From NCBI GenBank assembly GCA_964469155.1, contig CAYXXU010000002.1, positions 26,365-90,364 of the forward strand: a DNA stretch of 64,000 bases. The letters run 5' to 3'. The stretch is from an uncultured Bacteroidales bacterium (GTDB lineage Bacteria; Bacteroidota; Bacteroidia; Bacteroidales; CAIWKO01). Shown here in pieces: positions 5,196 through 15,714 of the stretch (its first letter is position 1; each line of letters begins with the position of its first letter). The translations under genes were made by a program, and so were the position numbers. The notes under the pieces were generated by a model. It was given only the letters and a program-made list of their open reading frames with translations. It was not told where the DNA came from and made no database searches.

Positions 5196-5227
5196 AATTT
5201 TCTCCTTTTTTAAGTGATTAATATTAA

Positions 5228-6055
5228 TTAAAATGTAAGTCCGAAAACAAAGTGAAAGCTCGATGCCTGCGGGTTGAAAATGACAGATGCTTTCAACGGC
5301 AGATCGAAATGTTCAGTAATTTTTATTTTTCTATATCCTGTAATACCCATATTCACCACAGCGAAACCACCGTCGTAAGCAGGTGTGCTGTATACACTGG
5401 AAAAAGGCGTAGCACCCACAAATGCGTCGAAGTTGAATTCCTTGATGGCAAATGAATACCCTAATTCGATGTAAGTGGAATAGCGGTTTTTAAATTTTAA
5501 GGACTGAAGCTTTCTGGTAGCAGTAAAAATACTGTCACCGGAAGTTTTATCATTTCCAAATACATAGGTACCCACCAATACGCTGATAGGAAATTTTTCG
5601 GGTCCTTTATATTGCAAAGTAGCCTCTATGGAATGTGAAGTGTATTTTGTCAGATTTACACCTGAAGTGGTGTCAAATTCAATTTCGGAAGGTGATTTGC
5701 AGTAGGAATAACGTGTGTCGTTCAGATCGGTTGCCAGTGCTGGAATATAATAATCAGTTACGGTGAGTGAAAACCCTTTTAGGGAGTATTTCAGATAGAG
5801 ATCGGATTCGACATAATTGTTGGTTAGAGCAATGGCTCCCCAGTAGCCCAGTTCGAAGTTTCCCAGACCAAATGATAGAGTCGGTTGTATGCTGGGTGAA
5901 CTGCCATAATCCATCCCTCGCCATACATAACGACTCATCAGATCGGCTCCAACATTTAGTTTAAAAGGGAATTTGCATTTTTTTTCCTGGGCTGTTACAT
6001 TAACAGTTGCAGAAAGGGCGAGCAACAAAAAACATAATGGTAAAAATCTTTTCAT
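5228..6055 (-). CDS. Putative outer-membrane beta-barrel porin co-transcribed with amtB
   Basis: 275 aa with a signal peptide (LLLALSATVNVTAQ), alternating beta-strand pattern, aromatic-rich sequence and a C-terminal F. The gap to amtB is 32 nt. Confidence 0.6.
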   Translation of the reverse strand: MKRFLPLCFLLLALSATVNVTAQEKKCKFPFKLNVGADLMSRYVWRGMDYGSSPSIQPTLSFGLGNFELGYWGAIALTNNYVESDLYLKYSLKGFSLTVTDYYIPALATDLNDTRYSYCKSPSEIEFDTTSGVNLTKYTSHSIEATLQYKGPEKFPISVLVGTYVFGNDKTSGDSIFTATRKLQSLKFKNRYSTYIELGYSFAIKEFNFDAFVGATPFSSVYSTPAYDGGFAVVNMGITGYRKIKITEHFDLPLKASVIFNPQASSFHFVFGLTF

Positions 6056-6951: not shown

Positions 6952-7584
6952 TGCCCTGAAAGGGCTTAAGCAATAGCATAGGACAACGTCCTATGCTATT
7001 TAAGAATGAAGAATCTTCGCCCTGTAAGGGCATCAGCCTAATCCCATACATATCTCTCATCATATTCGACGTTGTATTTCTTAAGAAAAGCCCTGAATTC
7101 TTCCTGAAAACTCTTGATTTTATGATGTTTGTATTGGTTAATAATATAATCAACGACTTTATCTGTTTCAGCAGGATTAACTGAAAAGATTCCATATCCG
7201 TCCTGCCAATAAAACTGAGAATATTTTTCGTCTTTCGTTTTTATCCATTTGGATGATTGTTTTTTTATTTCTTCTACCAATTTCATCTGTGCTACTTTAC
7301 GTGATAAAAGGTACAAAATGTGAACATGATCTTTATGTCCTCCAATTCTAACAGGATTACATTCCAATCCTTTACAAATGCCCCCCATATATTCATACAA
7401 TGAGTATCCAATGTTTTCATCGATGAGGGGTTTCCTGCTTTTTGTACTGAACGTTATGTGAACATAAACCTTTGATAATGATTGTGACATTTTTTTTTGC
7501 TTTCGCCCTTACAGGGCTTATAAATATCATTTACTATGGCTCAAAGGTCGATGCCCTTTGCTTCTGCTACTGCCCTTACAGGGC
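6952..7584 (-). mobile_element. RAYT gene with flanking REP-like hairpins
   Basis: There are four copies of a 13-nt hairpin. gccctgaaagggc (6952-6964) and gccctgtaagggc (7018-7030) lie 3' of the gene. The reverse-complement form gcccttacagggc (7505-7517 and 7572-7584) lies 5' of it. A perfect 13-bp-stem hairpin is at 6971-6999 (aatagcataggac-aac-gtcctatgctatt). Confidence 0.75.
7038..7490 (-). CDS. IS200/IS605-like Y1 (HUH) transposase, RAYT type
   Basis: 150 aa. HUH motif in KDHVHILY, catalytic Tyr context WQDGYGIFSV, and an N-terminus SKVYVHITFSTKSRKP typical of Y1_Tnp proteins. Confidence 0.88.
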   Translation of the reverse strand: MSQSLSKVYVHITFSTKSRKPLIDENIGYSLYEYMGGICKGLECNPVRIGGHKDHVHILYLLSRKVAQMKLVEEIKKQSSKWIKTKDEKYSQFYWQDGYGIFSVNPAETDKVVDYIINQYKHHKIKSFQEEFRAFLKKYNVEYDERYVWD

Positions 7585-7650: not shown

Positions 7651-9450
7651 CTATGAATGAATCCTTAACTTTACTTCTATCCGGGTTCCCTTGCCTGCAG
7701 CAGAAATAATCTGGAAGGTTCCACCCAGAATTTCTGCCCTATCGTGCATATTATAGATACCGTTCCCGCTTTTTCTTTTTTGTTCAGCATCAAAGCCTTT
7801 GCCGTTGTCTTCAATACTAAGGTGGATTGTTTCATTCTCATACAAAAAGTTTATATCCACTTTGGTTGCTTCCGAGTGTTTTACAATATTGTTAAGGGCT
7901 TCCTGAATAATACGGTAGAGGTAGATCTTAATATTGTTTTCGCATTTCTCAGGGAGTTCATTATAATGGAAAGTAATACGGATGTCATTATTGGAACGTA
8001 TCTCTTCGCAAAGGTTCTCAATGGCACTGATCAGCCCGAATTGGGTTAGCACCGGCGGCATAAGGTTTTCAGACATGCTGACTACTTCCCTTGAGGCAGT
8101 AGTGAGGAGGTTCTTGGCTTCGTCTATAATCTGTTGTTTCAATTCCGGACTGGCATTTTCGGCTCTTTCGAGCTTCATTTTAATAGCAAGAATGTGTTGC
8201 CCCAACCCGTCATGCAACTCGCGCGAAAGGCGCTGTCTTTCCTGTTCCTGACCGTCAATGACTGACGTGATACGTTTTGAACGCTCTTCCTGCAGTTCTT
8301 CTGTCTGCATTTTTATTTTTCCCGACATTTTGTTGAATGCGCTTGTCAGGTCGCCTATCTCATCGGTAGAGTTGTTTTCGAGTTTAGTATCATAATCTCC
8401 TCTTGAAATTGAATCTGCAGCCAGTTTCAGTTTTACTATGGGTGAGGAAATCCTTTTTGAAATGATAAAAACAATGCCGAAAATAATGATCGAAATGATG
8501 AGACTCAGAATAATGATGCTGTTTCGTAAGGTATAGATAGGTATCATGGCTTCTTCCACGTCTATCTCTACCAATATCACCCAGTTCAATCCGGGGATAT
8601 TAATTTTGCAGTAAGAGCCCAGAACCGTAATATTTCGATAATCCTTGTATTCTCCTGTCCCGTTGAGATTCTGAAAGGCTTTTTCTACGGCAAGTGTCTT
8701 TACCAATTGCTTGTTCACTGAATTACTTTTAAACCTGGATGAAGTGCGCATAATACGGTCAGAACCCACTACATAGGCTTCTCCGGTCTTTCCAAGTCCA
8801 TTCAGTACGTTGGTGTTGAACATAATGGAATTGATAGAAGCCATATCCATCTCGAACAATAATAATCCTGTTTTTTCGTTGGTGTTATTGTTTTTAAGAC
8901 TAGCCCCCAGGTAGATCTTTTTATTGACGAGGTCTTCCACAATTGATACCCGGTTCGATTCATTTATCTTTTTCAGGTATGCTATGATATCATCCCCGAA
9001 CTTTTCAGATAAAAATGTAATCCCTTTTTGATAAGGATTTGGCAGTTGGATGAAACAATTGAGGTGATGGGTTTGAAGGATAATGTTTTTAAAATCCAAT
9101 TTTTCGCTGAAATTCTTTGCAATTTTTTCTTTGAATTCAGAATCAATAAAGCGTAAATAATCACCGCTTCTTATTTTGCCCGATTTATAATCAGGCGCTT
9201 TTTTTATGATTCCTTCCCAGTTCTCGAAACGGCTGATCTGGCTCACTTCGTCCATCCTTTCCATAAGGTAGTTCTCAATATTCCTCTCTTTTTCGAATTT
9301 CACCGAGTTTAGTTGGTCGTAGGTGCGTGAGATAAGAGCATTTTTGGAGGTAAAGTAGGAGTAAAGGCTGAGAATGAAAATAGTGACCAGGCTCAGTGCG
9401 AAATAATAACCGAATAGTTTTTGAACCAATGTTGTTTTATTCCTTTTCAT
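7651..9450 (-). CDS. Sensor histidine kinase (NarX/LiaS-type, HisKA_3)
   Basis: 599 aa. N-terminal TM segment, extracytoplasmic sensor region, second TM segment and HAMP. H-box RLSRELHDGLGQHILAIK. ATPase motifs DNGKGF and GNGIYNMHDRAEILGG. Confidence 0.9.
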   Translation of the reverse strand: MKRNKTTLVQKLFGYYFALSLVTIFILSLYSYFTSKNALISRTYDQLNSVKFEKERNIENYLMERMDEVSQISRFENWEGIIKKAPDYKSGKIRSGDYLRFIDSEFKEKIAKNFSEKLDFKNIILQTHHLNCFIQLPNPYQKGITFLSEKFGDDIIAYLKKINESNRVSIVEDLVNKKIYLGASLKNNNTNEKTGLLLFEMDMASINSIMFNTNVLNGLGKTGEAYVVGSDRIMRTSSRFKSNSVNKQLVKTLAVEKAFQNLNGTGEYKDYRNITVLGSYCKINIPGLNWVILVEIDVEEAMIPIYTLRNSIIILSLIISIIIFGIVFIISKRISSPIVKLKLAADSISRGDYDTKLENNSTDEIGDLTSAFNKMSGKIKMQTEELQEERSKRITSVIDGQEQERQRLSRELHDGLGQHILAIKMKLERAENASPELKQQIIDEAKNLLTTASREVVSMSENLMPPVLTQFGLISAIENLCEEIRSNNDIRITFHYNELPEKCENNIKIYLYRIIQEALNNIVKHSEATKVDINFLYENETIHLSIEDNGKGFDAEQKRKSGNGIYNMHDRAEILGGTFQIISAAGKGTRIEVKLRIHS

Positions 9451-9473
9451 TTTTTGCTTTAGGAATGTAGAGC

Positions 9474-9481
9474 CAAAAGTA
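9474..9481 (-). promoter_or_regulatory. Bacteroidota -7 box for the kinase gene
   Basis: Plus strand reads caaaagta, which is TActTTTG in reverse complement. It lies 24 nt upstream of the ATG at 9450. Confidence 0.4.
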
Positions 9482-9658
9482 GGGTATTTTTTATTTCGAT
9501 GGTAAAAAGGAAGTTTTTAGTGGTGGAAAACAGTTTTGGATAGGCGATAGATAGGTTTTTAAATTATTCTTTGAAAAAATTACGCAAATTTGAAGCAAAA
9601 CTCAATTTTGTCCTGCTTTGAAAAAAATAATTGAACAACATCATCTCAAAAATTAACT

Positions 9659-9666
9659 TATATTTG
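9659..9666 (+). promoter_or_regulatory. Bacteroidota -7 box (TAnnTTTG) upstream of the WYL gene
   Basis: tatatttg matches TAnnTTTG, 33 nt upstream of the ATG at 9699. No clean -33 TTTG was seen. Confidence 0.45.
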
Positions 9667-9698
9667 TGCATACAAACCATAATTAATGTCCCGTTATT

Positions 9699-10700
9699 AT
9701 GTCAATTAACAAAAAAGCCCTGATACGGTATTATACCATTGACAGATGCCTTAATAATCCGGGAAGGAAATACTTTGTAGAAGATCTTTTAGAGGCAGTA
9801 AATTTTGCTTTAGAGGAAGAGGGTATAAAGGAAGGCATTAAACGCCGGCAATTGTTTGATGATCTGAATTTCATGGAGCTGAACTGGAGTGCGCCCATTG
9901 AAAGATATCCTGATGGCAAAAGAAAGTTTTACAGGTACGAAGATTTAAATTTTTCCATTAACAATCAGCCACTGAATCAGGCTGAAATAAATAAACTTAA
10001 AGATGCTATTGCAATAATTGCCCGATTTAAGGGAATGCCACAGTTTACCTGGGTAGAAGAAATTCTAACAAAGATTAATTATGGTTTAGGAGTTAATGGC
10101 CCTTCACAGGCAATCATCAGTTTTGATAGCAACGAGTATTTGAAAGGAATTGAACATTTGGGAACCCTTTTCGATGCAATAATTTATAAAAAAGTGCTTA
10201 ACATTGACTACCAACCCTACAATACCGAAAAGCCTTTAACATTATCCCTTCATCCGTATTTCTTGAAACAATATAATAATCGCTGGTTTTTGTTTGGGTT
10301 GAACGATGAGTATAATAAGATTACAAATTTAGCTCTGGATAGAATCCAAAGTATTCAGGAGATGAAAGGTAAATACAATGACGAACAAATGCCTGACTTT
10401 AATGAATATTTCGAAGACATAATTGGTGTTACCAAACCTGATGATGGAGTGATTGAGAAAATTGAAATTAAGGTTTCTACTTTACGCTCATCCTATGTAA
10501 AGTCAAAACCCATACATGGTTCCCAGAAAAAAATAAAAGAGGATGAAACCGGATATTATTTTTCAATTGAAATAATTCCAAACAAAGAATTTTACCAGCA
10601 GGTCTTATCATTTGGGTCTGATTTGGAGATCATAAGGCCTGATAAAATAAGAGGCATTATTAAAAACATGCTTAATGAGAATCTAAAAAACTATAAATAA
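9699..10700 (+). CDS. WYL-domain transcriptional regulator
   Basis: 333 aa. N-terminal wHTH-like segment (ALIRYYTIDRCLNN...). Central WYL-type motif YNNRWFLFGLND followed by a C-terminal WCX-like region. Confidence 0.8.
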   Translation: MSINKKALIRYYTIDRCLNNPGRKYFVEDLLEAVNFALEEEGIKEGIKRRQLFDDLNFMELNWSAPIERYPDGKRKFYRYEDLNFSINNQPLNQAEINKLKDAIAIIARFKGMPQFTWVEEILTKINYGLGVNGPSQAIISFDSNEYLKGIEHLGTLFDAIIYKKVLNIDYQPYNTEKPLTLSLHPYFLKQYNNRWFLFGLNDEYNKITNLALDRIQSIQEMKGKYNDEQMPDFNEYFEDIIGVTKPDDGVIEKIEIKVSTLRSSYVKSKPIHGSQKKIKEDETGYYFSIEIIPNKEFYQQVLSFGSDLEIIRPDKIRGIIKNMLNENLKNYK

Positions 10701-10766
10701 TTATGCTGTGCAGGTTGAGTGCACAGTTGCTGTTTTACTTTGCATCATCAAAAAAATAGAAGTATT

Positions 10767-12305
10767 ATGATAAATAAATTTAGCATCGAAAATTTTAAGG
10801 TTTTTAATGAGAAAACAGAATTTGAGTTTGCCCCAATAACCATATTGACCGGACCTAATAATTCAGGAAAAAGTTCGTTGACTAAAAGTGTAGCAGCATT
10901 ACTCAATTCGCAAAAAGATGATGTTTTCAAGGGAATTGATTTGCATTCTCCTATTATACCACTTGGAGATTTTAAATCAATAAAAAACAGAGAAAATCCT
11001 GATTCTCATATAAAAATGACATTACAATTGTCTGATAATGATCCTTGGGAATTTCGTTTTTATTATTGTTGTAGTTATCGTGTGCCTTTTTGGGGAGATA
11101 TTACTGAATTGGATATATATGCAGAATTGGATAAATTAGAAATTACCCAAGAGGGTATGGTTTTATTAGAATTTGAGAATACGATAGGGGATGGTCGATT
11201 ATTTTATACTAATATAAATTTTGATAATTCTTTGGAATACTTTAGAAAAAAAGGATGTCCTAATGCAAACAAATTATACAAATTAATCCAAAAACATGAG
11301 ATAAAAATTAAGCTGCCAGGTTGCGAGTTCGATCGAACTAAAACCAAGGGGTTTGTCACTCATTTTACAGATCGGGTTATTGAACATTTATTAAGCTATG
11401 ATCCTGAACCAAAGTCTAAAAAAGTCAAATGCGAAATAGATAAGACAGTATTTTCACAATTTGTTGAACCCTACCAGAACAAAATTAATAATCAAAAGGA
11501 TTATGATCAAATTATCTCTTCAATGGAGAAATTGTATCGTAAAACTATGAAAATTGCTGGTAAATGTATAGAGGATATCCGTTATAATGCAAATGAATTA
11601 AGATATTTACCAATAAACAGGGGCAGTACGAAAAGAAACTTTAACTTCAATTCAGATGAGACCTTAATTGAGAGAATAATTTATTATTTATCTATTTCTT
11701 CTGCTTCAGAAAATTGCAAATTAAATATTTCAGAAATCTTTAATGGCACTAAAAATAAGTTTAATGAAAAGTGGCTTGATTATTTTTTAATCGGGAAAGA
11801 AATTATTATTAAACAAACTGATTCGCCAAATTATAATATATTTATAAAAAATTATAAAGATGAATTGACGCCAATATTTGATGTAGGGCATGGATTGGCG
11901 GGGCTTATTACTTTATTATTTGGGCTTCGGGAATTGGAATTTGGTGGTTTTTGTATAATTGAAGAACCGGAAACCAATTTGCATCCTGCATTCCAATCAA
12001 AACTTGCAGATTTGTTTACTGCTGTTACAAAGAAAATAAAACACCAACTATTGATAGAAACACATAGCGAGTATCTTATCCGTAAGTTTCAGTATTTGGT
12101 TGCGCAAGGAGAAATGAAACCGGAAGAAATTGTGATTTATTATTTTAATGACCCCAGCAATATTCCGGAAGGGGAAGAACATGTGAAGAAGATTATGATA
12201 GAAAAGGATGGAAGTCTTTCTGATAATTTTGGGGCAGGTTTTTTTGATGAAGCCACTAACTTAAAATTTGATTTACTTAAACAAAAAAGGCCTAATAATA
12301 ATTAA
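10767..12305 (+). CDS. ABC/OLD-type ATPase (AAA_21-like, DUF3696-like tail)
   Basis: The start is taken at MINKFSIENFKVF (an in-frame ATG at 10719 is less likely). Walker A GPNNSGKSS lies at residues ~30-38. After a long insert come Walker B/D-loop CIIEEPETNLHP and H-loop IETHSEYLIRKFQ. The tail is VIYYF...DGSLSDNFGAGFFDEA. Confidence 0.85.
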   Translation: MINKFSIENFKVFNEKTEFEFAPITILTGPNNSGKSSLTKSVAALLNSQKDDVFKGIDLHSPIIPLGDFKSIKNRENPDSHIKMTLQLSDNDPWEFRFYYCCSYRVPFWGDITELDIYAELDKLEITQEGMVLLEFENTIGDGRLFYTNINFDNSLEYFRKKGCPNANKLYKLIQKHEIKIKLPGCEFDRTKTKGFVTHFTDRVIEHLLSYDPEPKSKKVKCEIDKTVFSQFVEPYQNKINNQKDYDQIISSMEKLYRKTMKIAGKCIEDIRYNANELRYLPINRGSTKRNFNFNSDETLIERIIYYLSISSASENCKLNISEIFNGTKNKFNEKWLDYFLIGKEIIIKQTDSPNYNIFIKNYKDELTPIFDVGHGLAGLITLLFGLRELEFGGFCIIEEPETNLHPAFQSKLADLFTAVTKKIKHQLLIETHSEYLIRKFQYLVAQGEMKPEEIVIYYFNDPSNIPEGEEHVKKIMIEKDGSLSDNFGAGFFDEATNLKFDLLKQKRPNNN

Positions 12306-12313
12306 GTTCTACT

Positions 12314-13330
12314 ATGCTCGACATTATTTTAGATAAAGACTTTCTAACGGCTTTCCCTGTTGGCTCGGATAATATTTATTGCCTTGATTTTATTAAGTTT
12401 TTAAAAAAGATCAGGAAATACAGGCTTATCACGAATTTTTCTTCGGTTAATGAGATGAAAATGTCTGCTTGCTTGCCCTTAATTGAATATTTAATTGACG
12501 GCAAGCCACCAGAAATTATTAAATTCTGTGAAATTGACAAGTATATAAATGATGAGGTTATTAATGGAATTGACAAAACATATCCGTTTAAACTTTTTTT
12601 AGTCGAGATGGATTATTCACAACAACGTATTGATTATGGGTTTGAATTTATTAATAGTTCAAATTTACCAGAGCGATGGAAAATATATTACAGTGAAAGA
12701 GAGGATAAAAAGCGTAAAGTAACAAATAGTGAAATAGATGAAATCGTAAAATTTGATTCCTGGAGCAAGTTAAAAGAATACGATCATCCATTTAATAGTC
12801 TTATTATTTTTGATCTATATTTACTTGGCGATAAAGATGGACAAAAAATCAATGATAATCTGTTCCCTTTATTAGAAAATCTTTTAGAGGGGAAAAATCT
12901 TAAAAGTGAATTGCATATTACTATAATTACTGAATATTTTAAAGATAAAATAGAATTAATACATAATCGTATTTCAGAATTTGTTAGTAAAATTAATGGC
13001 GTTAAGAAATTCAATCTTAACATTATCAAGCATGATAAAAGGTTTTATCCAAGAAATTTTCAAGATCTAAAATTCAGAAGGATCTATACGAATTATTTGG
13101 TTATTGAAGAGGAGAAAGGGTTTAATTGTTTTAAGAAAAAAAATGAAACAGGTCTCATTCATAATATTGGGTTTAGCTACATAACTGATCCATTTACTAA
13201 TTGCACACTAAAAACAGAAATTGATCTTATAAAAAGATATGTTGAAAAGGTACAAAATAGGCCTGTTTCACAATATCTTAGTGAAGAAATTAATTTTTTT
13301 AATAATAAAAACAATCGTCTTTTAAATTAA
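12314..13330 (+). CDS. Orphan 338-aa partner protein of the ATPase (function unknown)
   Basis: It starts 8 nt after the ATPase stop on the same strand. There is no signal peptide or TM segment. Only weak motif resemblances were seen (LFLVEMD ... LLGDKDG; KHDKRF...RRIYTNY). Confidence 0.7.
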   Translation: MLDIILDKDFLTAFPVGSDNIYCLDFIKFLKKIRKYRLITNFSSVNEMKMSACLPLIEYLIDGKPPEIIKFCEIDKYINDEVINGIDKTYPFKLFLVEMDYSQQRIDYGFEFINSSNLPERWKIYYSEREDKKRKVTNSEIDEIVKFDSWSKLKEYDHPFNSLIIFDLYLLGDKDGQKINDNLFPLLENLLEGKNLKSELHITIITEYFKDKIELIHNRISEFVSKINGVKKFNLNIIKHDKRFYPRNFQDLKFRRIYTNYLVIEEEKGFNCFKKKNETGLIHNIGFSYITDPFTNCTLKTEIDLIKRYVEKVQNRPVSQYLSEEINFFNNKNNRLLN

Positions 13331-13441
13331 TTTTCATCTTAATGGCTGTTTATAAAGTCATTTCCAGTTTTATTTTTTACACGGCTCATTAATTGCAAGC
13401 ATCGGTAATATTTTCGTACTTTAAATAAAAAACAAATTCTT

Positions 13442-13636
13442 ATGAGCAGTTTTAGCGATATGATGTTTGATGATGGATTTTCTGATCCACAAGAATATAT
13501 GGATTATCTTGAAGAAAAGGCATTAGGGCGTGACTATTCATCAGGTTGTCGCCATTTTTATAGGTCTAATGATAACTATGATTTCGAAGCTGGTGATTAC
13601 TCTGACGATCATGATGATATGGATGATGAGTTTTAA
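13442..13636 (+). CDS. Very acidic 64-aa protein (hypothetical)
   Basis: 20 of 64 residues are D/E against 4 K/R, with a C-terminal DYSDDHDDMDDEF. The ORF is short and no RBS or promoter evidence was seen. Confidence 0.4.
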   Translation: MSSFSDMMFDDGFSDPQEYMDYLEEKALGRDYSSGCRHFYRSNDNYDFEAGDYSDDHDDMDDEF

Positions 13637-13835
13637 AAACTCATAGTTTAGTCAAAATTCCAACCTTGTTCCTCCAATTCTTTCATTCTGATTAATCTAC
13701 TAGGTACTGGTTCAGATATTTTTTAGCATGGCTGAAGCAACTCCTTAGATGACAAAAAATATTTTCACTGAATCGAAAAAATACCTTTCCGTTTTGAAAA
13801 TGTTTCTTACCGATGCAGACAAACAAGTCATTTGC

Positions 13836-14118
13836 GTGTGAAATTTTTCTGCTCAGTTGAGGAAATGTCCTGCATAGTTGCAAGAATTTTCTACTGAGAT
13901 GCAGTAATGTTTTACTGCGTTGCAAGAATTTGCTGCTCAGTTGCAAGAATTTACTGCTCAGTTGCAAGAATGTACTGCACAGTTGCAAGAATGTACTGCT
14001 CAGTTGCAAGAATGTACTGCTCAGTTGTAAGAATTTACTGCTCAGTTGCAAGAATTTACTGCTCAGTTGTAAGAATTTTCTGCTCAGTTGTAAGAATTTA
14101 CTGCTCAGTTGCAAGAAT
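13836..14118. repeat. 21-bp tandem array A (about 13.5 units)
   Basis: Units are in exact 21-nt register from 13836. Consensus is ttgcaagaatttactgctcag. The first four units are degenerate and the central ones near-identical. All reading frames are open across it. Confidence 0.95.
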
Positions 14119-14232
14119 GAACACCTACTTTTCAATGCTTAAAAGTCTGTTAATGTGTTTATTCAGTTGCATTTTGTACTAAAGTCCAAAAATGGGGTTT
14201 CAACCGGCCTCGGCCATAAACTTCAACAACGC

Positions 14233-14527
14233 TTAGTTACCCTGGCGGAGTTGATAATACACTTTCTTTGAGTACTGAGTCATTGCGGTGTCTTTTCTTT
14301 ACTCTTAAATGCCTTAAGCCTATAACCTAAACCACAACCTTCACCCTTATCCCTTCCGAATGTGCAGAGAACTCGTTTACAAACACGTGGCACGTGAGTC
14401 CGGATGAAAAATTACCTACTGAGTATAAGGTGTGGTTGTTTGGGGGAGCATCTGGGCTCTATAAAACTTACCTTATCGGTTACCCTGCCGATAAAAAACT
14501 TTGGTTCATGGTGCGCCTGGTAACTAA
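14233..14527. ncRNA. Candidate structured non-coding RNA (class and strand unknown)
   Basis: ORF-poor region with nested complementarity. 14233-14241 ttagttacc pairs with 14519-14527 ggtaactaa, and 14244-14247 ggcg with 14514-14517 cgcc. Inner pairings are 14326-14332 cctaaac with 14438-14444 gtttggg, and a local hairpin at 14473-14494. Confidence 0.25.
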
Positions 14528-14624
14528 AGGAAGTTTGATGCACGAGAGCTATCCTCACATTTTATTTGTTTTCAGATAATCAAAAACTGAACAATGGATA
14601 TTAAGAAACCACGCCTCTGCGAGG

Positions 14625-14665
14625 TGTAATAATAATAAAAAAGGCCGGACAAATTGCCCGACCTT
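14625..14665 (-). terminator. Intrinsic terminator of the sod-DUF2892 unit
   Basis: The minus-strand RNA ggucgggc-aauuu-guccggcc forms an 8-bp stem (two G-U pairs) followed by UUUUUUAUUAUU. On the plus strand the same pairs would be A-C mismatches, so the element is strand-specific. Confidence 0.7.
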
Positions 14666-14687
14666 TTAACCAAAAAAACCAAATCAA

Positions 14688-14927
14688 TTATTTTTCCAAA
14701 ACTTCTTTTGATTCGCAACTTTTGCAATTCTGGCAACAGGTTGTAAAACCAAATGGAAGATATAAGGGACAAAAACTTAAAATGCTTGTCAGCAGAAAAA
14801 TACCTGCAAATACCAGCATTACTATACCCCAGGTGCCGCTTACGACCCCGGTAGCATAAAGGATTATAAAAGCGATTGCGGCTAATGATCTGACAAGTCT
14901 GTCGACTCCGCCCATATTCTTTTTCAT
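14688..14927 (-). CDS. DUF2892 (YgaP-like) small membrane protein
   Basis: Start taken at MKKNMGGVDRLVRSLAAIAFIIL. Two TM helices, and a CPLY motif typical of DUF2892. The longer ORF start would overlap sod. Confidence 0.75.
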   Translation of the reverse strand: MKKNMGGVDRLVRSLAAIAFIILYATGVVSGTWGIVMLVFAGIFLLTSILSFCPLYLPFGFTTCCQNCKSCESKEVLEK

Positions 14928-14937
14928 AATGTATTGT

Positions 14938-15714
14938 TTATTTGTGGTTAATAGCTGTATTATATCTCTCTTCAACTACCTGCCAGTTGATAATATTCCA
15001 GAAAGCACTGATGTAATCAACTCTTTTATTCTGGTATTTCAGGTAGTAAGCATGTTCCCAAACATCCATAGCCAGCAGGGGAGTGCCTCTTTTTTCTGCA
15101 ACATCCATCAGAGGGTTATCCTGATTAGGGGTAGAACTGATGAAGAGTTCCCCGTCTCCATCAACACTCAGCCATGCCCAGCCGCTTCCAAAACGTGTTA
15201 TGCCGGCATTGGCGAAATCTTCTTTAAATTTTTCAAGAGAACCGAATTTTTTAGTAAGCAGATTCATGAAACCTGTCGACATAGCTACCCCGTTGGGTGC
15301 CATATTGTCCCAATAAAGTTCATGGTTATAGTATCCACCACCATTATTTCTTACTCCGGCAGGATATTTACTGATTTCTGAGAATATCTCCGGCAGGGTT
15401 TTTTCTTCCAGAGGTGTGCCACTGACGGCTTTGACAAAATTATCAAAATAAGCTTTGTGATGGCGTGAATAGTGTATCTCCATTGTCATTTTGTCAATGT
15501 AAGGTTCCAATGCATCGTATGCATAGGGTAGGGGTTTAAATTCGAATTTGCCCTGAGGCATGTTTTCCTGTGTGTTCATGATTTTATTGTTTTTTAAATT
15601 AATAGATTGCTGATACGAGCTGTTAAATGAGGTTGGCTGCATCAAGGTGAAGAGCCAAAAACTGATAAAAATATTGATCATTTTAGTTCTATTTAGATTT
15701 TTTCTAAATAGCAA
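14938..15714 (-). CDS. Fe/Mn superoxide dismutase (start uncertain: 15714, 15681 or 15579)
   Basis: The core from FEFKPLPYAYDALEPYIDKMTMEIHYSRHHKAY through DVWEHAYYLKYQNKR is canonical Fe/Mn SOD. A 45-aa upstream in-frame extension contains a hydrophobic stretch. Confidence 0.92.
   Translation of the reverse strand: MLFRKNLNRTKMINIFISFWLFTLMQPTSFNSSYQQSINLKNNKIMNTQENMPQGKFEFKPLPYAYDALEPYIDKMTMEIHYSRHHKAYFDNFVKAVSGTPLEEKTLPEIFSEISKYPAGVRNNGGGYYNHELYWDNMAPNGVAMSTGFMNLLTKKFGSLEKFKEDFANAGITRFGSGWAWLSVDGDGELFISSTPNQDNPLMDVAEKRGTPLLAMDVWEHAYYLKYQNKRVDYISAFWNIINWQVVEERYNTAINHK

Follow-up and report, generated by a model that had tools for sequence, protein, structure and literature searches.

A WYL-associated ABC ATPase and PLD/MIT_C-like partner module, most likely related to Menshen and HEC-03, in an uncultured Bacteroidales bacterium

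Three co-directional genes in the window, as we call the whole 64-kb stretch of DNA analysed here, form a real conserved module in which an ABC ATPase gene and a partner gene are strictly adjacent. The module does not figure in today's catalogues of defence genes; most likely, it is a relative of Menshen and HEC-03. On balance, we favour the reading that it is a horizontally acquired conflict system, most likely anti-phage and of the abortive-infection type, which resembles an NsnB-NsnC core or HEC-03 while lacking the NsnA sensor. Gene architecture and domain folds are as follows (window coordinates):

9661-9668, + strand: TATATTTG, read from the sequence as TAnnTTTG, a putative Bacteroidota-type -7 promoter box, 31 nt before the WYL ATG
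9699-10700, + strand: WYL-WCX regulator gene (333 aa)
10706-10726, no strand assigned: palindrome CTGTGCA-N7-TGCACAG, candidate WYL operator, conserved non-coding site before the ATPase gene
10736-10742, + strand: TACTTTG box, putative -7 element of an internal promoter, 25 nt ahead of the ATPase ATG
10767-12305, + strand: NsnB-like OLD/ABC-type ATPase gene with DUF3696 tail (512 aa from ATG)
12207-12302, + strand: ATPase C-terminal tail DGSLSDNFGAGFFDEATNLKFDLLKQKRPNNN (aa 481-512), proposed docking element for the partner N-domain
12314-13330, + strand: partner gene (338 aa), third gene of the module
12314-12733, + strand: partner N-terminal alpha/beta domain of type A, starting MLDIILDKDF (aa 1 to about 140; AF2 model)
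12734-13330, + strand: partner C-terminal PLD/MIT_C-like domain (aa about 141-338; Foldseek, BFVD and MIT_C matches)
12812, + strand: invariant D167 of the partner (alignment column 109/109)
13070-13096, + strand: partner motif K253-F-R255(x)4N260, the window version of HxR(x)4N
13442-13636, + strand: acidic 64-aa ORF (20 D/E, 4 K/R) with homologues in related loci

The three genes and the gaps of 66 nt and 8 nt between them had been described in a first-pass annotation and were confirmed by a sequence check. The block had also been called AT-rich, and indeed the module has a GC content of 30.4%, while the remainder of the window has 41.1%. No other 3.6-kb stretch of the 64 kb is as low in GC, which we count in favour of a foreign origin. 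Upstream, the module is flanked by genes for a histidine kinase and a LuxR-type response regulator, downstream by the gene for a Fe/Mn superoxide dismutase (sodA). With a two-component system and sodA as flanks, the window does not qualify as a classic defence island, a point against our preferred explanation. The earlier statement that no integrase or tRNA is nearby stands for tRNAs, none of which was found anywhere in the 64-kb window. However, a Pfam search revealed an IS200-like Y1 transposase gene at 7038-7490, 2.2 kb upstream of the module, and thus the absence of mobility genes holds for integrases only.

The ATPase carries the motifs that had been assigned to it by eye: Walker A GPNNSGKSS (aa 29-37), Walker B IIEEPETNLHP (aa 397-407) and H-loop ETHSEYL (aa 431-437), which leaves about 360 aa between Walker A and Walker B. 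Further motifs are LPINR (aa 281-285) and GHGLAG (aa 374-379). Pfam matches comprise AAA_15 (1.4e-30), AAA_21 (8e-18) and DUF3696 (1.7e-7, aa 451-503), and the last of these bears out the DUF3696-like tail suggested earlier. A start at the upstream GTG 10719 (528 aa) is less likely, since homologues begin with MI(N/K)KFSIENF, which supports the ATG start of the 512-aa protein. The ATPase had previously been compared with PARIS, AbiL, Septu and Gabija. Instead of AriA, AbiLi, PtuA or GajA, however, its best PADLOC model is Menshen NsnB (3.7e-49, model positions 1-342 of 345), followed by the lower-ranked PDC-M55A (3.4e-34), AriA (2.9e-31), AbiLi (1.5e-18) and GajA (about 1e-14). The closest characterised ATPases in this ranking are all defence proteins, which speaks in favour of the defence reading.

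The linkage of partner and ATPase turned out to be complete: the partner gene lies directly downstream (0-60 nt) of a DUF3696-type ABC ATPase homologue in 17 out of 17 distinct loci and in 19 out of 19 pairs. The partner family comprises about 980 clusters or representatives (50% identity; E<=1e-3), the distribution of the module is patchy, and the pairs are tandemly duplicated in loci L004 and L022. Type I restriction-modification (R-M) genes adjoin the module in L002, L022 and L025, while ParE, HepT/MNT and PIN toxin-antitoxin (TA) genes are found near it in L001 and L021. A PLDc_2-domain gene (a faint Pfam match) and IS elements are located nearby in L003 and L004.

Menshen (NsnA-NsnB-NsnC) was reportedly introduced by Millman and colleagues in 2022. 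Besides the combination of AAA_15 with a DUF3696 tail and NsnB as best model, the window ATPase shares two features described for NsnB: its Q-loop position is occupied by R, and GxG replaces the SGG signature. Directly downstream, the partner gene encodes a variable N-terminal alpha/beta domain and a C-terminal MIT_C/PLD-like domain with D...HxR motifs, and in both systems the N-domains are polymorphic and shuffled. NsnC effectors with such a two-domain layout, termed 'inPIN + PB-PLD1', have been described (Li et al., 2025, PMC12065111). The idea that the effector may be outside known partner families was therefore given up. In contrast to Menshen, the window ATPase comprises EE in its Walker B motif instead of the EN reported for NsnB and exceeds the PADLOC NsnB model in length by about 170 aa, its partner matches no PADLOC NsnC model, the motif His of the PLD-like domain is replaced by K, and in place of NsnA (ParB-DUF262 + ParBDB) a WYL-WCX regulator is encoded upstream in one clade.

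The trio might be an ordinary Menshen system (NsnABC) whose NsnA was lost or is encoded elsewhere, in which case it would belong to a named system, in eroded or trans-complemented form, and would not be a distinct variant. Such a reading fits the NsnB match, the partner layout and the domain loss reported in Menshen loci (PMC12065111). However, neither the window nor any one of the 17 related loci has a DUF262/NsnA gene, and the DUF262 motif DGxQR is absent from ORFs of at least 150 aa in the window and of at least 120 aa in 278 kb of related loci. Furthermore, the NsnA-less arrangement is found in relatives as close as 39% identity and as distant as a profile E of 2.7e-21, which indicates a stable architecture rather than sporadic erosion. 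Given also the missing match to NsnC models, we consider this reading unlikely. Thus no named system accommodates the trio cleanly, in line with its first description as uncharacterised: NsnA is lacking and the partner has no PADLOC model.

HEC-03 consists of an ABC ATPase and a PIN-domain protein, both of which are required for phage defence; it does without a separate sensor gene, is often found beside type I R-M-like (Hma) systems and is toxic upon induction (Payne et al., 2024, bioRxiv 10.1101/2024.01.29.577857). The window module is likewise sensor-less and built around two genes, and its ATPase matches the HEC-03 ATPase model at aa 351-495 (6.5e-29). That a related two-gene ABC ATPase system provides demonstrated phage defence is a further point in favour of a defence function. 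However, the ATPase match is partial and weaker than that to NsnB, no WYL regulator has been described for HEC-03, and the HEC-03 partner is VapC-like, presumably an active PIN RNase without PLD domain, while the window partner matches no HEC-03 model. Similarly, the PADLOC candidate PDC-M55 combines a DUF3696 ATPase with a partner, and aa 341-495 of the window ATPase account for the PDC-M55A match. A true PDC-M55 pair in L026 (a Bacillus plasmid, adjoining AbiGi/AbiGii) is a distant relative of the window ATPase. Its partner matches PDC-M55B (2.5e-26) and is not of the PLD family, whereas the window partner has no PDC-M55B match. PARIS (AriA/AriB), Septu (PtuA/PtuB), Gabija (GajA/GajB) and AbiL follow the principle proposed here as well: an OLD/ABC-type ATPase oligomer keeps a nuclease partner bound or under control and sets it free or switches it on when phage is sensed. 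Yet their ATPase models score at least 18 orders of magnitude worse than NsnB, and they employ Toprim or HNH nucleases as effectors instead of PLD-like proteins.

The partner had been described as a protein of no recognised family. This remains correct insofar as it has no match in Pfam, PADLOC or NCBIfam and the whole family is without any model in these collections; however, it is not foldless. An AF2 model built from a 109-sequence alignment (pLDDT 95.5, pTM 0.93) displays two domains, of which the C-terminal one is common to all family members and PLD/MIT_C-like, while the N-terminal one is swapped among partner types A, B and others. A Foldseek search against the PDB delivered MITD1 (2ymb, prob 0.99, TM 0.63 on target; 4a5z, prob 0.97), followed by PLD3/PLD4, a Streptomyces PLD and Tdp1. 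The top BFVD match is a viral PLD phosphodiesterase (E 6.7e-5), Pfam MIT_C matches 5 of the 109 family members (best 5.2e-5), and an alignment of the family profile with MITD1 covers the HDR motif (E 0.038). In eukaryotes MITD1, the closest solved fold, binds membranes and ESCRT-III and has no known enzymatic activity, which we count against our preferred explanation. Its MIT_C domain and the HKD-like domain at the C-terminus of BrxL share the PLD-like fold and HDR-type motif with the partner C-domain; in contrast to MITD1, the window domain is fused to a putative adaptor domain and tied to an ABC ATPase. The MIT_C/HKD-like domain of BrxL has been reported for BREX (PMC12065111; PMC12839542).

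In the model, the N-domain follows the order b-a-a-b-a-a-b-a-b-a-b. It might be taken as PIN-like from this secondary-structure order alone, and we count this against our preferred explanation: sequence profiles of the N-domain matched neither PIN nor any other family, and Foldseek with the full-length model gave no PIN match in the PDB. Across the 109 family sequences, D167 and R255 are invariant (109/109 each), while N182, N260 and H253 are present in 106, 105 and 96, respectively. The window partner retains D167, N182, R255 and N260 but has K253 in place of the near-invariant His, so that canonical PLD phospho-histidine chemistry is unavailable to this copy and its catalytic competence appears uncertain. 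The same loss is found in 13 of the 109 members, among them three of the six closest, all with intact partner ATPases. Thus either hydrolysis is not the function of the domain, or not its sole function, or the His-less copies lack activity.

Another feature concerns the ATPase tail, whose type equals the N-domain type of the partner in all pairs examined. A-type tails (FFDEAxNLKFELLKLKN) pair only with A-type N-domains (11 pairs) and B-type tails (FFDETDRLLNGLITGE) only with B-type N-domains (3 pairs), in a sample that is small and phylogenetically structured. The window ATPase itself is a mosaic with a B-group body, an A-type tail and an A-type partner: conserved blocks of aa 1-480 share 66-88% identity with B-partnered ATPases versus 30-62% with the A-group, whereas aa 481-497 share 71-88% with the A-group versus 65% with the B group, and aa 498-512 share 27-60% versus 13-20%. 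Co-variation and mosaic together support a putative docking of the tail to the N-domain. This agrees with an AF3 prediction of an NsnC N-domain held in a clamp of paired DUF3696 domains from NsnB (PMC12065111) and fits the DUF3696-inPIN interface predicted for Menshen.

The TAnnTTTG box noted earlier ahead of the three genes was confirmed as TATATTTG and, by analogy with the known Bacteroidota consensus, may act as promoter of the WYL gene. The WYL protein matches Pfam WYL (3.2e-13), WCX (1e-7) and PADLOC WYL models (2.6e-26). While the WYL core with YNNRWFLFG at aa 192 was correctly recognised in the first-pass annotation, the proposed N-terminal wHTH was detected by no profile. With HTH-WYL-WCX regulators such as BrxR, CapW, PafBC and DriD the protein shares the WYL and WCX architecture, a size of about 330 aa, a position directly upstream of and co-directional with a defence-type operon and a palindrome at the candidate regulated promoter. 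However, it is only distantly similar to them, and the HTH of these regulators has no profile-supported counterpart. Among solved structures, it comes closest to the PafBC-type regulator 7p5x (E 2.8e-4; BrxR 7qfz, E 0.56). The WYL gene shares 66-76% identity with those of L004, L006 and L029, and the order WYL-ATPase-partner recurs in L004, L006/7, L008 and even L025, a Prevotella plasmid with 34% WYL identity. However, the gene is conserved in one clade only and most ATPase-partner pairs lack it, so the WYL regulator, formerly taken as controlling the module, is an accessory and not a constant part.

The non-coding site between the WYL and ATPase genes is conserved. The 72-nt spacer, which contains the palindrome, is 82% conserved over four loci whose ATPases are just 46-57% identical. 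The palindrome occurs once in the 64-kb window versus 0.03 times expected and precedes the acidic gene in L008, L006 and L029; it was not found in 24 other loci examined. L025 carries a similar site (ATGCAG-N6-TGCACA), the architecture being kept despite the divergent WYL protein. The WYL protein may act via this palindrome, possibly as a repressor, although a terminator-like hairpin followed by a T-rich tail would fit the site by score as well, which counts against an operator. The TACTTTG box is a putative promoter element and in the window one base short of the TAnnTTTG consensus; relatives have TAATTTG or TAATTTTG (conserved block TA(c/a)TTTGCA in alignment A5), and L025 has the canonical TAATTTTG at the matching position. 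Homologues of the acidic ORF are present in L008 (56% identity), L006 (truncated) and L029/L030. In L029 the acidic gene directly follows the WYL gene, and in L008, L006 and L029 palindrome and TAnnTTTG box precede it intact, while the corresponding window site (13383-13399, GGCTCATTAATTGCAAG) is decayed. The acidic ORF is possibly a further member of the same WYL regulon.

This arrangement allows another reading, a WYL-controlled stress or DNA-damage regulon, in which WYL is a PafBC/DriD-like ligand-activated activator, ATPase and PLD-like protein form an SMC/RecF-like repair or processing pair, and the acidic protein is another member. The PafBC-type nearest relative would fit, as would the operator ahead of cargo of an unrelated kind (the acidic gene and a DESGS-motif gene of L029, where no ATPase is present), the processing of DNA ends by the PLD-fold proteins Tdp1 and PLD3/4 and the housekeeping flanks of the window. 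In contrast, patchy distribution, low GC and tandem duplications argue against it, as do cassette swapping, fast-evolving inserts and frequent R-M, TA and IS neighbours, which are hallmarks of conflict systems. As the closest characterised ATPases are furthermore all defence proteins, we give this regulon little credence.

For the favoured conflict system, defence function and nuclease chemistry are inferred, and the following mechanism can be envisioned. The ABC ATPase (10767-12305) would oligomerise and hold the two-domain effector (12314-13330), with the DUF3696 helix and tail (aa about 481-512) docking to the alpha/beta adaptor domain at the effector's N-terminus. Sensing of the trigger would most likely fall to the large insert that separates Walker A from Walker B and evolves fast. 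ATP binding or hydrolysis might then release or activate the PLD/MIT_C-like domain, which could then attack phosphodiesters, nucleic acid being the most likely substrate. The palindrome at 10706-10726, which overlaps the candidate internal promoter before the ATPase gene, would be bound by the WYL-WCX protein (9699-10700), so that control of the toxic pair would depend on a ligand; the small acidic protein gene of relatives might be governed by this operator too.

Alternatively, the pair might be a toxin-antitoxin-like addiction cassette that stabilises an islet or mobile element and does not sense phage, with a PLD-like toxin stoichiometrically neutralised by the AbiEii/AAA_21-annotated ATPase. 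The ATPase indeed matches Pfam AAA_21 'AbiEii toxin', the tight gene spacing (8 nt or overlapping) suggests translational coupling, TA, IS or Y1 transposase genes are neighbours, and HEC-03 is toxic when induced. However, an ATPase of about 500 aa whose Walker A, Walker B and H-loop are all intact and which carries a variable insert of 360 aa exceeds the needs of a stoichiometric antitoxin. Furthermore, tblastn with the partner found no member on 72,556 plasmids and 50,697 phages, more divergent members being reached via the ATPase in L024 and L025; for the favoured conflict system, too, this lack of matches is a point against. While TA function does not preclude abortive-infection defence, a pure addiction cassette seems quite improbable to us.

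Finally, that the window copy is a decaying, non-functional remnant is very unlikely: K253, the degraded operator and -7 box before the acidic gene and decayed relatives (ATPase split in L010, fragmented in L024) would fit, but all three ORFs are full length, the ATPase motifs are intact, the effector keeps its other four conserved residues, the His-less state with intact ATPases recurs among family members, and the identical trio was seen in three independent sequencing runs.

The WYL-ATPase-partner module represents an uncatalogued family, but no new principle. We consider it moderately likely that it is a WYL-gated system of the abortive-infection type, in which an NsnB-like ATPase holds a PLD-like effector docked to its tail. 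The NsnB-like ABC ATPase would sense a trigger via its variable insert, and ATP binding or hydrolysis would then release or activate the tail-docked effector. The three open reading frames named by the first-pass annotation were recovered, with spacers of 66 and 8 nt, and are arranged together with the neighbouring elements as follows:

7038-7490, minus strand: IS200-like Y1 transposase gene (Pfam Y1_Tnp, 3.4e-23)
9661-9668: TATATTTG box ahead of the WYL gene
9699-10700, plus strand: WYL gene, 333 aa
10706-10726: palindrome CTGTGCA-N7-TGCACAG in the WYL-ATPase spacer (one copy in the window, 0.03 expected)
10736-10742: TA(c/a)TTTGCA box, 25 nt before the ATPase ATG
10767-12305, plus strand: ATPase gene, 512 aa counted from the ATG
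12314-13330, plus strand: partner gene, 338 aa
13442-13636, plus strand: acidic ORF of 64 aa just downstream of the module (20 D/E, 4 K/R, no family)

An alternative in-frame GTG upstream of the ATPase ATG lies at 10719, within the conserved non-coding palindrome, and ATPase homologues start with MI(N/K)KFSIENF. Both the AT-richness and the absence of tRNA genes noted in the annotation were confirmed: the module has a GC content of 30.4% against 41.1% in the remaining window, of which it is the lowest-GC stretch of 3.6 kb, and no tRNA was found in the whole window. It is flanked by a histidine kinase and a LuxR-type regulator on one side and by an Fe/Mn SOD on the other. The surroundings of the islet showed neither flanking direct repeats nor insertion scars, and window 9000-15000 gave no Rfam family. 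Three of the four loci of the WYL clade carry a Y1 transposase gene at a distance of 1-3 kb from the WYL-ATPase-partner module; the homologues (L006 6487-6951 and L008 3590-4054, both on the minus strand) share 34-36% mutual identity, window copy included.

The ATPase matches AAA_15 (1.4e-30), AAA_21 and, at aa 451-503, DUF3696 (1.7e-7) in Pfam, and NCBIfam gave matches at P-loop level only. Among the PADLOC models, NsnB ranked first (3.7e-49, model positions 1-342 of 345), followed by PDC-M55A (3.4e-34, partial, aa 341-495), AriA (2.9e-31, 18 orders of magnitude behind NsnB) and the HEC-03 ATPase (6.5e-29, partial, aa 351-495, again weaker than NsnB), with AbiLi, GajA and Old far below the others. 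The motifs of the protein are:

aa 29-37: Walker A
aa 281-285: LPINR
aa 374-379: GHGLAG
from aa 396: Walker B, CIIEEPE
from aa 431: H-loop, ETHS

For NsnB, a component of the Menshen system, three motif variants are described, namely Q to R in the Q-loop, SGG to GxG in the signature and DE to EN in Walker B (Li et al., PMC12065111). By inspection, LPINR and GHGLAG fit the first two, whereas Walker B of the window ATPase reads EE.

Like NsnB, the window ATPase is of the AAA_15/OLD type with a C-terminal DUF3696 helix, and the two-domain layout of the partner would fit that described for NsnC, in which a polymorphic inactive-PIN-like N-domain is followed by an effector domain (Li et al., 2025, PMC12065111). 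PB-PLD1, one of these effector domains, has an MIT_C-like fold, with a D/E following beta-2 and an HDR preceding beta-5 (PMC12065111), a description that the C-domain of the partner resembles. However, a WYL+WCX gene is found upstream of the ATPase instead of NsnA, which combines ParB-DUF262 (motifs QRxxxW, DGxQR and FxxxN) with ParBDB. No DUF262/NsnA gene was detected in any of 17 related loci and no DUF262 Pfam match among the called genes of L001-L008, L021-L023 and L027 (L numbers denote related loci from genomes, metagenomes and plasmids), while the DGxQR motif was absent from window ORFs of at least 150 aa and from ORFs of at least 120 aa in 30 related loci (278 kb). Thus, without NsnA, the module falls outside Menshen. 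An eroded Menshen, i.e. a decayed form of that system, is the less favoured reading, since the whole family stably shows the arrangement without NsnA.

HEC-03, PDC-M55 and PARIS differ in the partner. HEC-03 is a validated two-gene system of ABC ATPase and VapC-like PIN protein (10.1101/2024.01.29.577857), whereas the window partner matches no HEC-03 model and the ATPase match is partial. The PDC-M55B model gave no match in the window partner and four other PLD-type partners. As a positive control served L026, a locus of a distant Firmicute relative, in which a true PDC-M55 pair (PDC-M55A 8e-80, PDC-M55B 2.5e-26) adjoins AbiGi/AbiGii; its PADLOC-recognised partner is not PLD-like. The PADLOC library consequently detects partners known to it, and such ATPases carry polymorphic effectors. 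AriB of PARIS is a Toprim protein (DUF4435), while the window partner is PLD-like and without an AriB match. The module is therefore placed outside all three systems on account of its partner. Assignments to AriA/PARIS, AbiL, Septu and Gabija were rejected based on model scores and partner fold, NsnB being the best model and the partner PLD-like. The suspicion that the trio is uncharacterised held, as it maps cleanly to no named system: Menshen fails on NsnA, the other three on the partner. A literature search found no description of a trio of WYL protein, DUF3696 ATPase and PLD-like protein. The module nevertheless resembles the NsnB-NsnC core of Menshen, HEC-03 and the general theme of an OLD-ABC protein plus an alternative nuclease.

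The partner had been taken for an orphan. This holds for family models, as it found no match in Pfam, NCBIfam or PADLOC (the latter at E<=0.1), but its fold is recognisable and its C-terminal half is PLD/MIT_C-like by AlphaFold2 and Foldseek. A word-indexed homologue search delivered six relatives only (a family of 7), which is a sensitivity artefact: when 1.84 billion cluster representatives were scanned in full with an HMM, 980 reached E<=1e-3 and 94 of these even E<=1e-30. Thus the partner family is sizeable and un-named, with about 980 clusters at 50% identity. We thereby define an NsnA-less, Menshen-like two-gene family whose partners current defence finders would miss.

An AlphaFold2 model from 7 sequences (pLDDT 48) was discarded, and an alignment of 109 sequences remedied this, resulting in a two-domain model with pLDDT 95.5 and pTM 0.93. 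In a Foldseek search of the PDB, the model, PLD-like from aa ~141 to 338, retrieved MITD1 first (2ymb, probability 0.99, target TM 0.63; 4a5z, probability 0.97), besides PLD3/PLD4, Streptomyces PLD and Tdp1, while the best BFVD match was a PLD phosphodiesterase (E 6.7e-5). Five of the 109 members matched Pfam MIT_C, the strongest at 5.2e-5, and the family profile aligned with MITD1 at the HDR motif (E 0.038). The family motif H253-x-R255-x4-N260 has the spacing of the PLD motif HxK(x)4D; N182 is near-invariant, D167 invariant, and H253, D254 and R255 are present in 96, 55 and all of the 109 sequences, respectively. Despite this likeness to the PLD (HKD) superfamily, the window partner reads K253-F-R255 (KFR) and lacks the PLD-type catalytic His. 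The motif His is missing in 13/109 members, three of the six closest homologues of the window partner among them, and this recurrent loss raises the question whether immune MIT_C-like domains such as NsnC PB-PLD1 and the BrxL C-terminus are enzymes. A rival reading takes the window module for a decaying copy. Since the nearest solved fold is MITD1, a membrane binder not known as an enzyme, and the window copy is without the motif His, effector chemistry is the weakest link of our explanation.

The N-terminal half of the partner (aa 1 to ~140) is Rossmann-like alpha/beta in the model, and its order b-a-a-b-a-a-b-a-b-a-b is compatible with a predicted PIN-like topology. Foldseek with the full-length model gave no PIN match, and a profile of the N-domain had chance-level matches only in PDB and Pfam, none of them PIN. 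Candidate acidic positions in this domain are not conserved (D7 in 65/109).

The proposed co-occurrence of ATPase and partner was borne out. From partner relatives, ATPase relatives, plasmid records and metagenome scans, 17 distinct related loci with 19 ATPase-partner pairs were obtained, and both genes are adjacent in all of them: in 19/19 pairs, a gene of the partner family follows an AAA_15/DUF3696 ATPase gene at a distance of 0-60 nt or overlaps it, and this includes a partner whose match to the family profile reaches no more than E 2.7e-21. An alignment-based locus scan delivered 2 genome and 7 metagenome loci and, in viral sequences, none, and tblastn with the window partner against plasmids and phages gave no match. 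Neighbours of the pairs in related loci are often defence or mobile genes:

L002, L022, L025: type I restriction-modification
L001, L021: ParE, HepT/MNT and PIN toxin-antitoxin genes
L003: PLDc_2-domain gene (faint Pfam match) and DDE transposase
L004: IS21

A toxin-antitoxin-like addiction cassette is another rival reading of the module. Pairs also occur in tandem. In L004 (2137-8567) two pairs stand behind a single WYL gene and differ in the N-domain type of their partners, and in L022 (362-7647) three ATPases and two partners come after a type I HsdR gene. L025 is the Prevotella sp. E2-28 plasmid pE2-28 (NZ_CP091789.1 122215-132544), with an annotated, isolate-derived trio that could serve experiments. 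Its order is HTH, GIY-YIG nuclease, WYL, an 85-aa ORF, the ATPase (588 aa) and the partner (334 aa), with hsdM, hsdS and hsdR directly behind; in this partner a third type of N-domain is joined to the PLD C-domain. Two further loci hold decayed modules. L010 6041-8957 comes from a Bacteroidota MAG; its ATPase is divided between ORFs of 457 and 127 aa, and the tail is frameshifted. In L024 3392-6366, on a Persicobacter plasmid, the ATPase is broken into three ORFs, with the partner ORF still present.

All partner types share the PLD-like C-domain, and their N-domains are unrelated:

Type A, start ..IILDKDF..: window, L001-L003, L004 pair 2, L009, L014, L017, L021-L023
Type B, start MNHFFCTFTDF..: L004 pair 1, L006, L008
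Further N-domain types: L025, L024, L022 pair 1

In this small sample (11 type A, 3 type B, few others), co-variation between the far C-terminal end of the ATPase and the partner type is perfect. It reads FFDEAxN(L/W)KFELL(K/R)LKN with type A partners and FFDETD(R/K)LLNGLI(T/S)G with type B partners, and other types go with other tails. We infer from this pattern that the tail binds the N-domain, in agreement with an AF3 prediction in which the paired DUF3696 tails of NsnB clamp the NsnC N-domain (PMC12065111). The co-variation thus supports the predicted interface between ATPase tail and effector N-domain from sequence, independently of structure. Over aa 1-480 the window ATPase is closest to ATPases associated with type B, with 77-88% identity of its N-terminus to the two closest ones (L008: 70%) and, in the region of Walker B and H-loop, 66-78%. 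In contrast, aa 481-497 and 498-512 are 71-88% and 27-60% identical to ATPases of the A-group, but 65% and 13-20% to those of the B-group. The window pair hence consists of a B-like ATPase body, an A-pattern tail and a type A partner. This mosaic breaks the phylogenetic confound of the co-variation and makes the docking interface directly testable via tail swaps. Given the switch from body to tail together with the type A partner, the exchangeable unit would comprise roughly the last 30 ATPase codons and the partner gene.

The WYL assignment proved correct (Pfam WYL 3.2e-13, WCX 1e-7; PADLOC WYL 2.6e-26), while none of the HTH profiles gave a match in aa 1-150. WYL-WCX genes 66-76% identical to that of the window precede the ATPase in L004 and L006/7, L008 holds a WYL fragment at the contig edge, and in L029 a gene of the same identity range occurs with the ATPase absent. 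A 34%-identical WYL protein stands ahead of the pair in L025, beside type I restriction-modification. Since the remaining pairs are without WYL, it is by gene content a clade-specific accessory. The WYL-ATPase-effector trio put forward earlier recurs in relatives, while WYL is not a constant part but the accessory of one clade.

The WYL protein is conserved more than the proteins accompanying it. The 72-nt WYL-ATPase spacer is 82% identical over four loci whose ATPases share only 46-57%, and L025 has the same spacer architecture, ATGCAG-N6-TGCACA followed by TAATTTTG. The palindrome recurs 5' of the acidic gene in L008, L006 and L029 and has no further occurrence in the 28 loci. By score, the window copy is terminator-like as well, but a pure RNA terminator is less likely: the arms diverge without compensation in L006/L004, and in L006/L008 the site is part of a divergent promoter region. 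On these grounds a protein operator fits the candidate palindrome better, and we infer a WYL-controlled internal promoter before the ATPase gene. A sigma-70 promoter scan stayed at shuffle level, the model being uninformative for Bacteroidota. By analogy, repression as with BrxR or CapW would be the simpler reading and activation of the PafBC or DriD type the alternative. The nearest solved WYL relative is PafBC-like (7p5x, E 2.8e-4), and a WYL stress or DNA-damage regulon is a rival to the defence reading. The palindrome offers a concrete operator candidate for a WYL regulator associated with defence in Bacteroidota, a phylum in which this kind of control has received little attention.

Homologues of the acidic gene are 80-87% identical in DNA over the first ~70 nt:

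L008 4241-4435
L006 7137-7229
L029 2384-2566
L030 900-1082

In L008, L006 and L029 the gene has the palindrome and a TAnnTTTG box upstream, as has the ATPase gene; in L006/L008 a Y1 transposase gene is divergent from it with the palindrome between. The upstream site of the window ORF (13383-13399) is decayed. In L029 the acidic gene directly follows the WYL gene, with no ATPase or partner between. From this adjacency and the palindrome at the acidic gene, WYL gene, operator and acidic gene may form a backbone that receives ATPase-effector cassettes.

One might speculate further and join three parts, a WYL/operator socket, a docking code in the ATPase tail and a non-catalytic effector, although we regard this joint reading as rather improbable. 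WYL gene and palindromic operator would be fixed, with interchangeable ATPase-effector cassettes inserted, one or two pairs per site or none as in L029. The last ~30 ATPase residues would specify which effector N-domain is held, and recombination within the 3'-terminal stretch of the ATPase gene would exchange cassettes. In the window subclade, the His-less PLD/MIT_C-like effector would act non-catalytically, e.g., as a binder of nucleic acid or of membrane, the latter in the manner of MITD1; if true, ABC-ATPase defence systems would have an effector mode that has not been described for them so far.

Downstream of the WYL and acidic genes in L029 (2602-3285) and L030 (1118-1801), a 227-aa protein with an N-terminal DESGS motif is encoded, which by eye resembles a vWA MIDAS motif and has no Pfam match. 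A 160-aa protein follows in both loci, i.e., different cargo at the same putatively WYL-controlled site. Between acidic ORF and sodA, the window contains a tandem array of 13 units of 21 nt (13845-14118, TTTACTGCTCAGTTGCAAGAA, 85% matches), a period of two helical turns. Every unit holds CTGC(T/A)CAG, which is similar to the operator half-site CTGTGCAG/GTGCACAG, a resemblance that may be due to chance. L008 also carries a 21-nt array, of 8 units (5220-5396), which is unrelated to that of the window.
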